Part shown: one piece after another, positions 31,854 to 35,976 of the stretch
How the letters are laid out: every line of letters begins with the position of its first letter
How positions within the stretch are numbered: the stretch's first letter is position 1
Source: a phage
DNA: 64,000 bases
Sequence record: PX915678.1
Direction: 5' to 3' (one strand)
Position numbers and translations under genes: made by a program
Notes under the pieces: generated by a model
Seen by the model: only the letters and a program-made list of their open reading frames with translations
Databases searched by the model: none
What the model was told of the DNA's origin: nothing

Positions 31854-34800
31854 ATGGCTACTTTAAAACAAATACAATTTAAAAGAAGCAAAACCGCAGG
31901 AGCACGTCCTGCCGCTTCAGTATTAGCCGAAGGTGAATTGGCTATAAACTTAAAAGACCGTGTACTTTTTACTAAAGATGACCAAGGAAATATTATTGAT
32001 CTGGGTTTTGCTAAAGGCGGTAGCATTGACGGGAATGTTATTCATATAGGAAACTATAATCAAACTGGTGATTATACTTTAAATGGCACCTTCACTCAGA
32101 CAGGTAATTTTAATTTAATCGGTATTGCTCGAGTAACTCGCGATATTATTGCCGCCGGGCAGATTATGACCGAAGGCGGAGAACTTATTACAAAAAGTTC
32201 AGGTACATCACATGTTCGTTTTTTCGATAGCAATAGCCGCGAACGCGGAATCATTTATTCACCGGCTAATGATGGATTAACTACACAAGTACTTAATATC
32301 AGGGTTCAAGACTACGCCGCTGGTAGCGAAAGCACTTATGCATTTTCAGGCAATGGCCTATTTACTTCACCTGAAGTATCAGCATGGAAATCTATGTCAA
32401 CTCCTCAGATTTTGACCGATAAAGTTATTACAGATGGGAAGAAGACAGGCGATTATGACATCTATTCATTAGCAAATAACACTCCATTGGCAGAAAGCGA
32501 AACGGCTATTAACCACCTCCGTGTTATGCGAAATGCCGTAGGATCTGGTATATTCCACGAAGTTAAAGATAATGACGGGATAACCTGGTACGCCGGTGAC
32601 GGATTGGAGGCCTATCTTTGGTCGTTTACCTGGTCCGGTGGATTGAAAGCAGGCCATTCTGTTTCTATAGGTCTTCCAGGTGGCCCTAAAGGATATTCTG
32701 AATTAGGAACAGCTTCAATTGCCCTCGGCGATAATGATACCGGATTTAAATGGCATCAAGATGGGTATTTCCATACAGTAAACAACGGAACAAAAACTTT
32801 CATTTACGGTCCTGCGGAAACACAAAGCCTTAGAAAAATGGTTATGGGTTATTCTCCGGATGGTATTCTCATGACAACGCCACCGACAGAAAACTATGCT
32901 CTTGCTACTGTCGTAACATATCATGATAATAATGCGTTTGGAGATGGCCAGACTCTTTTAGGTTATTATCAAGGCGGTAATTATCATCACTATTTCCGCG
33001 GTAAAGGTGTCACAAACATTAATACTCATGGCGGTTTGTTAGTTACTCCTGGTAATATTGACGTTATTGGCGGTTCTGTTAATATAGATGGTAGAAATAA
33101 TTCTTCTACATTGATGTTTAGAGGTAACACGACTGGTAATAGTTCAGTTGATAATATGACAATTTCCGTATGGGGTAACACGTTTACTAATCCTAGTGTA
33201 GGTAATCGTAAAAATGTCATGGAAATTTCTGACGCAACTAGTTGGATGAGCTATATTCAAAGACTTACTACCGGTGAAGTAGAAATGAACGTTAACGGTT
33301 CATTTGAATCATCTGGTGTTACTGCTGGAAATAGAGGAGTTCACACAACAGGTGAAATTTCATCTGGGGCCGTGAATGCGCTTCGCATTTGGAACGCAGA
33401 TTATGGTGCCATTTTCCGTCGTTCAGAAAACAGTCTTCATATTATTCCAACTGCCTATGGTGAAGGCAAAAATGGCGATATCGGTCCACTTCGTCCATTT
33501 AGTATGTCTTTAGATACAGGTAAGGTCGTTATTCCTGATTTAGATTTAAGTTATGCTTCTTTTGCCGCAAATGGTTATATTAAATTCGGCGGTCATGGAG
33601 CGGGCGCGGGTGGTTATGATATTCAGTATGTTCAAGCAGCTCCTGTTTTCCAGGAAATTGATGATGATGCTATAAGTAAATATTATCCTATTGTTAAACA
33701 GAAGTTTTTAAACGGTAAAGCTGTTTGGTCTTTAGGCACTGAAATTAATTCCGGGACTTTTGTTTTACATCATTTAAAAGAAGATGGTTCACAAGGCCAT
33801 ACATCAAGATTTAATGCTGACGGTACAGTTAATTTCCCTGATAATGTTCAGGTTGGCGGTGGTGAAGCTACTATTGCTCGAAATGGTAATATCTGGTCTG
33901 ATATTTGGAAATCGTTTACTTCAGCAGGAGACACTACAAATATTCGTGATGCAATAGCTACTCGTGTTTCTAAAGAAGGCGATACGATGACCGGTAAGTT
34001 GACTTTATCTGCTGGAAATGATGCCCTTGTTTTAACTGCAGGCGCGGGTGCTTCATCGCACATCCGTAGTGATGTAGGTGGTACAGGTAACTGGTATATA
34101 GGCAAAGGCGGCGGCGATAATGGTCTAGGTTTTTATAGTTACATTACACAAGGCGGTGTATACATAACAAATAACGGCGAAATATCGCTTTCTCCTCAAG
34201 GTCAAGGAACATTTAATTTTAATAGAGACCGCCTTCATATAAACGGTACACAATGGGTTGCGCATCAGGCCGGCGATTGGGGAAATCAATGGCGCCAGGA
34301 AGCTCCCGTATTTGTGGATTTTGGCTACGTCGGTAATGATAGTTATTATCCTATTATTAAAGGAAAATCTGTTATTACGAATGAAGGATACGTATCTGGT
34401 GTTGATTTCGGTATGCGCCGTATCACTAATAACTGGGCGCAAGGTATTATCCGTGTAGGTAATCAGGAAAACGGTTCTGACCCACAAGCTATCTTCGAAT
34501 TCCATCATAATGGAAACATGTACGTTCCTGACATGGTTAAAGCTGGAGTAAGAATATCAGCTGGTGGAGGTGACCCTGTATGGACAGGCGCATGTGTTGT
34601 TATTGGTGATAATGATACTGGTTTAGTCCATGGCGGTGATGGCCGAATCAATATGGTTGCCAATGGTGTTCATATTGCTTCATGGTCATCTGCTTATCAT
34701 CTCCATGAAGGTCTTTGGGATACTACTGGTGCTTTGTGGACTGAGCAAGGAAGAGCTATTATTTCTTTTGGTCATTTAATCCAACAGAGTGATGCATATT

Positions 34801-35165
34801 CAACGTTTGTCCGTGATGTTTATGTCCGTTCTGATATTCGCGTTAAAAAAGACCTCGTTAAATTTGAAAATGCTTCTCAGAAGCTTTCTAAAATTAACGG
34901 TTACACTTATATGCAGAAGCGAGGCCTGGATGAGGAAGGTAATCAGAAATGGGAACCTAACGCCGGTTTAATTGCTCAAGAAGTTCAAGCTATTTTACCA
35001 GAATTAGTTGAAGGTGACCCTGATGGTGAAGCTTTACTTCGTTTGAACTATAACGGTGTAATTGGTTTAAATACAGCTGCAATCAATGAGCATACCGCAG
35101 AAATTGCAGAACTTAAATCAGAAATCGAAGAACTTAAAGCATTAGTTAAATCATTGTTAAAATAA
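31854..35165 (+). CDS. 37: long tail fibre distal subunit gp37 with C-terminal intramolecular-chaperone (self-cleaving) domain
   Basis: 1103 aa; C-terminus [33 protein letters not shown]...[14 protein letters not shown] resembles S74-type SD.R.K motif plus coiled coil. Confidence 0.9.
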
Positions 35166-35170
35166 TAAGA

Positions 35171-35184
35171 GGGGCTTCGGCCCC
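35171..35184 (+). other. C(UUCG)G hairpin between genes 37 and 38
   Basis: ggggc-ttcg-gcccc immediately upstream of gene 38 SD GGAGG. Confidence 0.45.
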
Positions 35185-35196
35185 TTGGAGGTTTAT

Positions 35197-35976
35197 ATGG
35201 CAGTAACAGGACCGTGGGTAGGATCGTCTGCAGTAGTTAATACAGGACAAAATTGGATGGGTGGTGCGGCCCAACGATTAAGAATGGGCATTCCGTTCTG
35301 GATGAGTAATATGATAGGTCGATCTGTTGAAGTAATTCACACGCTTGGAGCAGACCATAACTTCAATGGTCAATGGTTCCGAGATAGATGTTTTGAGGCA
35401 GGTAGTGCACCTATAGTGTTTAATATCACTGGAGATTTAGTATCATATTCTAGAGATGTTCCTTTATTCTTCATGTACGGAGATACACCGAATGAATATG
35501 TTCAACTGAACATACACGGCGTAACGATGTATGGTCGTGGTGGGAATGGTTGGGCCGCTGGTGCAATTGGAGCATCTGATGGCGGTGTATGTATCCAGAA
35601 TGATATAGGTGGACGTCTGCGAATTAATAATGGCGGAGCTATTGCCGGTGGCGGCGGTGGCGGCGGTGGTTATTCACAAGCCAACAACTGGGCGGGAAAA
35701 TATGTTTGTGGTGGCGGTGGCGGTCGTCCATTCGGCTTAGGCGGAAATAATGGTGCTCGATGGCCTGGTGGTAATGCTAGTTTGACGTCTCCGGGTGCTG
35801 GCGGTAATACTGGTACAGGGTATTATGCAGGTGGCGGTGGTGAAGTTGGTCAACCTGGTCAATATGCTAATCCAGGTTCTGGTTATTCAACACCTCCGAC
35901 AAATCCTGGTGCTGCTGTAGCAGGATCAGCTCCAACATGGCAGAATGTTGGAGCAATATATGGTTCAAGAGTATAA
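35197..35976 (+). CDS. 38: receptor-recognising adhesin gp38 (T2-type, glycine-rich motifs)
   Basis: 259 aa from [13 protein letters not shown]...; poly-Gly blocks [33 protein letters not shown]; start at ATG after SD (track TTG start 35185 rejected). Confidence 0.85.

Follow-up and report, generated by a model that had tools for sequence, protein, structure and literature searches.

Evidence for a two-protein receptor-recognition tip, with a predicted self-cleaving gp37 and a PP01-like gp38 adhesin, on the long tail fibre of a Tequatrovirus

Results

Two adjoining genes on the + strand, g37 and g38, occupy positions 31,854 to 35,976 of a 64,000-nucleotide (nt) stretch of phage DNA (sequence record PX915678.1; the whole stretch is called the window below) and encode the distal part of a long tail fibre. 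g37 (31854-35165) specifies a long tail fibre distal subunit precursor of 1103 amino acids (aa) and ends in tandem TAATAA stops, and g38 (35197-35976) specifies a tail-fibre tip adhesin of 259 aa counted from its ATG. These open reading frames (ORFs), with their lengths and coordinates, had been given correctly in an earlier reading made without database searches (here the sequence-only reading). gp37 matched PHROG 1699, "long tail fiber protein distal subunit," over its full length (1347 bits), and gp38 matched PHROG 2056, "tail fiber protein; host specificity." g38 lies directly 3' of a gp37 gene that ends in a predicted cleavable chaperone domain.

In DNA comparisons, 643 phage records matched positions 31854-35976. 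One match spanned at least 80% of this region in 121 of them, nearly all Escherichia/Shigella Tequatrovirus, and the top matches were Shigella phage Sfk20 (97.8%) and KNP5 (95.5%). Because the matches of the first 25 kb of the window agree with those of the fibre region, the window is placed by homology in the pSs-1/PP01 neighbourhood of Tequatrovirus. gp37 was 97.5% identical to Sfk20 and 91.7% identical to PP01 at the amino acid level, and tblastn found gp38 at least 95% identical in 35 phage records, including Sfk20 (100%), AR1 (97.7%), and PP01 (96.5% over the full length). PP01 has the same gene order, and its cleavage motif and chaperone domain are identical to those described below, but it differs by eight gp38 substitutions in aa 4-19, by a gp37 that is 6 residues longer, and by a mosaic gp37 shaft (54-98% identity per 50-aa block). 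Besides PP01, the closest systems are AR1, pSs-1, Sfk20, KNP5, and about 120 other Tequatrovirus genomes.

The last 111 of the 1103 residues of gp37 (aa 993-1103; 34830-35162, + strand) match an S74-type intramolecular chaperone. Peptidase_S74 (PF13884) aligned with aa 993-1052 over profile positions 1-57 of 58 (47.4 bits against a cutoff of 22; E = 2.3e-12), and the C-terminal 141 residues aligned end to end with the chaperone region of S16 gp37 (E = 1.7e-36). Weaker alignments, also in register, were obtained with the MyRF autoprocessing domain and with another phage fibre. At the N-terminal edge of the domain, the motif SDIRVK holds a predicted catalytic dyad of Ser993 (34830-34832) and Lys998 (34845-34847), five residues apart and in register with SDRRIK of S16, SDIRLK of T2, ADLRAK of MyRF, and SDERLK of 8jov. 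A database search with this segment yielded 26 homologues, the most distant of them about 38% identical, and every one matched PF13884. The motif R-S-D-x-R-x-K, including the Ser and the Lys, was invariant in all 19 whose domain is intact at its N-terminal edge, and the four exceptions were truncated or fused fragments. Within the clade the chaperone domain was 98-100% conserved, while the fibre shaft was mosaic.

S16 gp37 is cleaved at DLNVS^SDRRIKK, according to a passage of PMC7917993 that cites Dunne et al. The aligned sequence here is DVYVR^SDIRVKK, and from this alignment we predict that the scissile bond is R992^S993, N-terminal to the serine, so that mature gp37 would have 992 residues and 111 would be released. 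T2 gp37, whose C-terminal processing is stated in PMC3157838, reads VYIRSDIRLK at the aligned site. By analogy with S16 and T2, gp37 very probably removes its own folding helper.

We modelled the C-terminal segment of gp37 as an AlphaFold2 monomer built on the homologue alignment and compared the model with the Protein Data Bank (PDB) by Foldseek. Over the chaperone domain, the predicted local distance difference test score (pLDDT) was about 90, and, as in S74 chaperones, the modelled fold was a small domain of beta-sheet leading into a long helix at the C terminus. The last 37 residues were predicted as a single long helix, which is consistent with the coiled coil proposed in the sequence-only reading. 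Foldseek matched the model to the MyRF ICA domain (7dc3; prob 1.00, E = 9e-6) and to the endosialidase chaperone (3gw6; prob 0.75-0.93), and no further PDB match exceeded prob 0.5. The S74 domain that the sequence-only reading placed at the gp37 C terminus is thus upheld by the PF13884 match, the Ser/Lys pair, the S16 alignment, and the model fold. Its rough limits, 34820 to 35165, were also accurate, as the string cited for it starts at aa 991 (nt 34824). With the K1F endosialidase endoNF chaperone (3GW6) and the MyRF ICA domain (7DC3), the gp37 domain shares the Pfam family, the fold, the long C-terminal helix, and an N-terminal Ser-x4-Lys pair at the junction with a trimeric beta-helix. It differs in being only 10-24% identical to them, in being carried by a tail fibre shaft rather than by a sialidase or a transcription factor, and in that its removal would also create the docking site of a separate adhesin.

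Directly upstream of the chaperone, gp37 aa 912-992 (34587-34829, + strand) form a distal beta-helical tip that ends in DVYVR and aligns with chain A of 6F45, the S16 gp37 fragment crystallised with gp38 (E = 3.7e-43). We predict that this segment forms the C terminus of mature gp37 and offers the surface on which gp38 docks; for S16, PMC7917993 describes what the last strand of the gp37 tip does. The PDB sequence matches of gp37 were only to S16 gp37 and to gp34 structures, with no other gp37 tip among them. The gp34 matches arise from aa 418-562 (33105-33539, + strand), where gp37 is homologous to the trimerisation domain at the C terminus of gp34 (4uxe/5nxf, E = 1e-11; PF21446 Gp34_trimer on aa 450-550, 34 bits, above the cutoff of 27). 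This gp34-like segment indicates, at the level of homology, that the proximal and distal half-fibres have modules in common.

The shaft also contains a patch, at about aa 801-900 (34254-34553, + strand), whose ancestry is unlike that of the rest of the gene. Identity to Sfk20 is 76-85% at the nucleotide level within this recombination patch versus 97-100% on both flanks; positions 34230-34600 are 100% identical to Shigella phage ESh16, and the patch is about 93% identical to EC121-like phages. Other gp37 blocks, such as nt 32754-32903, are similarly mosaic relative to KNP5, ECp13, and pSs-1. In the record of Shigella phage sb4 (PQ666542.1, 301-3609), gene 37 is interrupted by in-frame stops and split into three annotated ORFs, which reflects a mistake in sequencing or assembly or else a fibre gene that is disrupted in this record.

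gp38 was matched over the full profiles of both Pfam families GP38 (PF05268; 243 bits, positions 1-218 of 218, E = 4e-72, cutoff 25) and Gp38_N (PF21721; 76.7 bits, positions 1-40 of 40, E = 1.3e-21, cutoff 25). The latter match defines an N-terminal attachment domain (aa 1-40; 35197-35316, + strand) with Trp7, Trp20, and Trp35, which align with Trp7/20/36 of S16 gp38. In S16, these tryptophans are prongs that enter three equivalent pockets of the gp37 trimer (PMC6851490). Homology to the S16 gp38 in 6F45 extended over the full length (E = 1.2e-52, 47% identity). The comparison with T2 and S16-type adhesins that the sequence-only reading had suggested thus found gp38 homologous to both, at 44-49% identity for T2.

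The C-terminal half of gp38 carries a polyglycine-II sandwich with receptor loops (aa 119-231; 35551-35889, + strand), as deduced from near-identity to 9V85. By the loop definitions of PMC12892980, loops A to E lie, on the + strand, at 35551-35568, 35677-35706, 35746-35763, 35806-35823, and 35869-35889, respectively. Glycine makes up 33% of aa 110-259, with runs of eight (aa 151-158), five (172-176), and four (212-215), and the run of eight occupies the same position as helix 3 of S16. We aligned ten divergent gp38 proteins over their full length with MAFFT (this one and those of T2, JS98, RB68, 4E10, PST, FriedrichMiescher, ABTNLS3, Sf23, and S16). The fraction of sequences with the majority residue was 0.35-0.52 in loops A to E versus 0.64-0.86 in the Gly-rich segments, which were 36-62% Gly. 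This full-length alignment was used because the end at residue 142 of most divergent gp38 hits by tblastn, which could have been taken as hypervariability, may be an artefact caused by low-complexity filtering of glycine runs. The loops were thus the least conserved parts beside a conserved Gly scaffold, which agrees with the poly-glycine blocks and variable segments singled out in the sequence-only reading. Its assignment of gp38 as an adhesin-type protein is likewise borne out by the two Pfam matches, the docking domain, and hypervariable loops amid Gly-rich motifs. Adhesins of this build are described in PMC3157838 (covering 1987-2011), and gp38 has been reported at the fibre tip of virions, where it sets host range, for PP01, T2, and S16 (PMC12892980, PMC6851490). 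A local G+C peak at 35500-35999 (0.50 versus about 0.37 around it) with a positive GC skew of 0.30 was considered as a sign of foreign origin and rejected, since both are accounted for by the dense GGN glycine codons in this half of gp38.

Residues 37-259 of gp38 were identical at 222 of 223 positions to PDB 9v85_A, a green fluorescent protein fusion of a gp38 receptor-binding domain. The domain in 9V85 is that of PP01 gp38, and its structure was solved at 2.1 Å (Terasaki et al., mBio 2026, PMC12892980). Loops A to D are identical to those of PP01, and loop E reads NPGSGYS here versus NPGAGYS in PP01; the sole difference in the receptor-binding domain is therefore Ala228Ser, at the tip of loop E (codon 228, TCT, 35878-35880). 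For PP01, photo-crosslinking and mutagenesis indicated that Gly208 in loop D contacts loop 5 of OmpC(O157) and that Tyr230 in loop E contacts loop 7, with the conclusion that loop E governs specificity (PMC12892980). Closely related gp38 proteins use the same receptor, and OmpC is bound by only a small group of them (PMC12032242). Since Ala228Ser is the only change in the loops relative to PP01, OmpC is most probably the receptor, with its extracellular loops 5 and 7 as the sites of contact. The sequence-only reading had left an open list of receptors. OmpC stays on it as the prediction, and the remainder of the list is narrowed by the PP01/AR1/pSs-1 lineage.

Residue 228 varies in nature. Among 11 members of the clade with colinear genes, codon 228 was TCT (Ser) in five, GCT (Ala) in four, AAT (Asn) in one, and GTT (Val) in one. 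No other site in the PP01-like gp38 clade is as polymorphic, and no other has more than three amino acid states. Elsewhere in the receptor-binding domain of these phages, 33 variable codons were synonymous only versus 9 that changed the amino acid. The residue 228 variants of the clade phages did not split by host genus: phages with Ser228 come from S. flexneri, S. sonnei, E. coli, and O157:H7, and Ala228 is found in O157 and Shigella phages. Separately, KNP5 and AR1 carry Gly208Arg, at the residue crosslinked in loop D.

Between g37 and g38 lies a gap of 31 nt with a GAGGGGC-UUCG-GCCCCUU tetraloop hairpin (35169-35186, + strand), flanked by the g37 TAATAA stops and the g38 Shine-Dalgarno sequence GGAGG (35187-35191, + strand). 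The hairpin folds at -15.8 kcal/mol (z = -2.0) and is invariant in 10 related phages. In the annotation of phage G4507, it is labelled a putative terminator. We consider it more likely to be an mRNA-stabilising or processing element, because no T-run follows it on the + strand. An in-frame TTG at 35185, which would add four residues to gp38, was rejected as the start codon: it lies inside the hairpin and upstream of GGAGG, and Gp38_N aligns from the ATG.

On the + strand of the window, the two genes are part of a long tail fibre operon of canonical T-even organisation. It comprises g34 (26130-30002, 1290 aa), g35 (30011-31126, 371 aa), g36 (31189-31845, 218 aa), g37, and g38, followed by the holin gene t (36007-36663, 218 aa). 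Pfam and PHROG named each fibre protein from gp34 to gp38 and the holin as expected for this order; next, on the minus strand, comes the early region that includes asiA, motA, and gene 52. The consensus of T4 late promoters is of the type TATAAATA, and an exact match lies on the + strand at 31158-31165, separated from g36 by 24 nt. Within the fibre region, this strand has just one further copy, which precedes g34 at 26088. Because TATAAATA was not enriched across the window (8 found versus 9.1 expected), we attach meaning only to the copies directly before g34 and g36, and we base the assignment on position and on what is established for T4 late promoters; on these grounds, the g36-g37-g38 late transcript likely starts at 31158. 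A second CUUCGG-type hairpin with a T-run lies directly after g35 (31130-31151) and abuts this promoter consensus, giving a terminator-then-promoter junction (31130-31165) within the fibre operon upstream of g36. Over 30900-36800, neither sigma-70 promoter-like sites (22 found versus 19.5 expected) nor terminator-like sites (6 versus 4.4) exceeded chance, the Rfam gathering and ARAGORN tRNA scans of the whole window gave no matches, and no NCBIfam model matched gp37, gp38, or gp35.

Further observations concern other parts of the window. In the fibre hinge protein gp35, aa 58-126 (30182-30388) matched Pfam ILEI (PF15711; 33.3 bits against a cutoff of 27), a FAM3-type domain named for an interleukin-like inducer of epithelial-mesenchymal transition, which we take to be the "GG domain" reported to be common to phage gp35 and the human FAM3/POMGnT1 proteins. 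Two minus-strand ORFs of 302 aa (11205-12113 and 22856-23764) were considered as a duplication and found unrelated (BLASTP E = 1.3). The former is a pseT-like polynucleotide kinase/phosphatase, and each overlaps a plus-strand ORF of 158-159 aa.

Discussion

We consider it very likely that g37 and g38 encode the two-protein distal receptor-recognition module of a Tequatrovirus long tail fibre, in which gp37 is cleaved, gp38 caps the trimmed tip, and the cap binds OmpC. We found nothing in the sequence at odds with a two-protein tip. In the mechanism that we propose, transcription of genes 36, 37, and 38 would be late and would probably start from the 31158 promoter. The C-terminal 111 residues of the 1103-residue gp37 precursor would nucleate trimerisation and folding of the beta-helical fibre, after which the Ser993/Lys998 dyad, whose residues are present and conserved, would cut R992-S993 as in S16 and T2 and the chaperone would leave. 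Cleavage would expose a flat trimeric tip ending in DVYVR. One gp38 monomer could then dock by means of the three-helix domain at its N terminus, placing Trp7, Trp20, and Trp35 in three equivalent pockets as in 6F45, which would give a 3:1 gp37:gp38 stoichiometry and place gp38 in virions. The remainder of gp38 would form a small beta-helix and the polyglycine-II sandwich, with the five distal loops binding OmpC loops 5 and 7 as modelled on PP01.

The label "T2-type" given in the sequence-only reading fits the architecture but not the lineage: gp37 and gp38 are only 35% and 44-49% identical to those of T2, the gp38 N terminus is in the style of S16/K3, and the homologies assign the true lineage to PP01/AR1/pSs-1. 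In common with T2 are the two-protein tip, the C-terminal processing that gp37 undergoes in T2, the motif VY(I/V)RSDIR(L/V)K, and a gp38 of Gly-rich motifs and hypervariable segments. The receptors of T2 are OmpF and FadL, not OmpC. The classical "T2-type" fibre is reportedly that of Drexler, Riede and Henning in 1986, whose subject is said to have been the C-terminal proteolytic processing of T2 gp37, and of Riede et al. in 1987. T2 gp37 is longer (1341 versus 1103 aa) and its 35% identity applies overall, with 94% identity in the first 50 residues, which form the join to gp36. T2, JS98, and PST have a gp38 N terminus of the MAIVGVPGWIGE style, whereas this gp38 shares the style of S16, RB68, and 4E10. 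PP01 gp38 complements a phage with T2 gp37 fibres only after its N-terminal 113 residues are swapped to those of T2 (PMC12892980).

Likeness to S16 (PDB 6F45, Dunne et al. 2018) is closer in several respects. It includes the trimeric beta-helical gp37 tip, a chaperone of similar length (about 111-113 residues and autocleaved in S16), and the style of the gp38 N terminus, along with OmpC as the S16 receptor. A monomeric gp38 with a three-Trp attachment domain, a beta-helix, and a polyglycine-II sandwich is also shared, as far as sequence can indicate it here. The differences are in the sequences and lengths of the gp38 loops, in a gp37 tip with about 12 extra residues, and in the residue before the scissile bond, Arg here and Ser in S16; in addition, the OmpC bound by S16 is that of Salmonella. 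With T4, the module shares the locus, the organisation of the fibre shaft, and assembly through gp34-gp35-gp36-gp37. In T4, by contrast, the receptor is bound by the C terminus of gp37 as the fibre tip, and the protein called gp38 is an unrelated chaperone, released once assembly is complete.

Several points weigh against our interpretation. Autocleavage of gp37 and the presence of gp38 in virions are carried over from S16 and T2. The structural model is of a monomer, while the domain works as an intertwined trimer; its TM-scores to 7dc3 are about 0.5, and its residues 1-31, which belong to the fibre tip, have pLDDT below 50. The specificity data for PP01 concern O157 OmpC. Ser228, which is absent from the set of PP01 mutants, could shift affinity or the preference for an OmpC allele.

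The last of these points bears on the alternative that the architecture is as proposed but that the receptor is not OmpC, or is another OmpC allele or includes a second receptor, through Ser228 or through a site elsewhere on the fibre. Residue 228 is the sole difference from 9V85 and sits at a functionally sensitive position: in PP01, Ala228 makes reported hydrophobic contacts, and A228D or deletion of the residue abolishes infection (PMC12892980). The four amino acids found at this site in 11 phages stand out from a mainly synonymous background, and the isolation hosts of clade phages include Shigella flexneri, S. sonnei, O157, and other E. coli. Nonetheless, we regard this alternative as quite improbable, because all five loops are otherwise as in PP01, Ser is small and both A228V and A228L are tolerated in PP01, Ser228 also occurs in PEC04, isolated on O157:H7, the Ala, Ser, and Asn variants each occur in both Shigella and E. 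coli phages, and gp38 proteins that are close relatives share a receptor (PMC12032242). Alternatively, the S74 domain could be a noncleaving relic, so that gp37 keeps its C terminus in the virion and gp38 is only an assembly factor or is bound elsewhere. Cleavage in this phage is argued from homology, which leaves room for such a relic, but the Ser/Lys dyad and its motif are intact here and do not vary even in homologues of only about 38% identity, the domain is held at 98-100% in a clade whose shafts are mosaic, and the docking tryptophans of gp38 are conserved. Moreover, the docking surface for S16 gp38 arises by removal of the S74 domain, as described in PMC7917993 and PMC6851490. These observations make a relic highly improbable.

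A T4-type arrangement, with the gp37 C terminus as the receptor tip and gp38 as a released chaperone, would suit the gene order g37-g38-t, which is as in T4, and the records of some related phages that label gene 38 "assembly catalyst" or "chaperone." It is effectively refuted: gp38 matches only the adhesin families PF05268/PF21721 and two adhesin structures, including 9V85 at 222 of 223 residues, and gp37 ends in an S74 chaperone and finds only S16 gp37 and gp34 in the PDB. The sequence-only reading had drawn the same contrast with T4, which matches the explicit separation of the two types, with a receptor-binding gp37 tip and a gp38 that is only a chaperone in T4, in PMC12892980, PMC6851490, and PMC3157838.

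Within our preferred interpretation of a gp38 cap that binds OmpC, we raise one speculation about residue 228. In the PP01 model, the tip of loop E enters a cleft between OmpC loops 5 and 7 (PMC12892980). Codon 228 might be a hotspot of diversifying selection, with Ser, Ala, Asn, and Val tuning which OmpC alleles (O157, Shigella, commensal E. coli) can be used. We hold this to be improbable, and residue 228 is a small testable lead that falls short of a finding. If it were true, the host range of the Ser228 form would be measurably unlike that of PP01 despite identity at 222 of 223 residues.

The module itself is already known, and nothing in the gp37/gp38 architecture described here is new. 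The two-protein tip has been described since the 1980s, its structure has been solved twice (S16 in 2018 and PP01 in 2026), and the module is present in more than 100 sequenced phages, in many of them with almost the same bases throughout. The practical value of our analysis is in annotation and prediction: a PP01/pSs-1-like Tequatrovirus, with OmpC as the predicted primary receptor and Arg992 as the predicted end of mature gp37. It also flags a natural Ser228 at a position shown to matter for OmpC binding, which is useful for engineering or choosing phages against O157 or Shigella.

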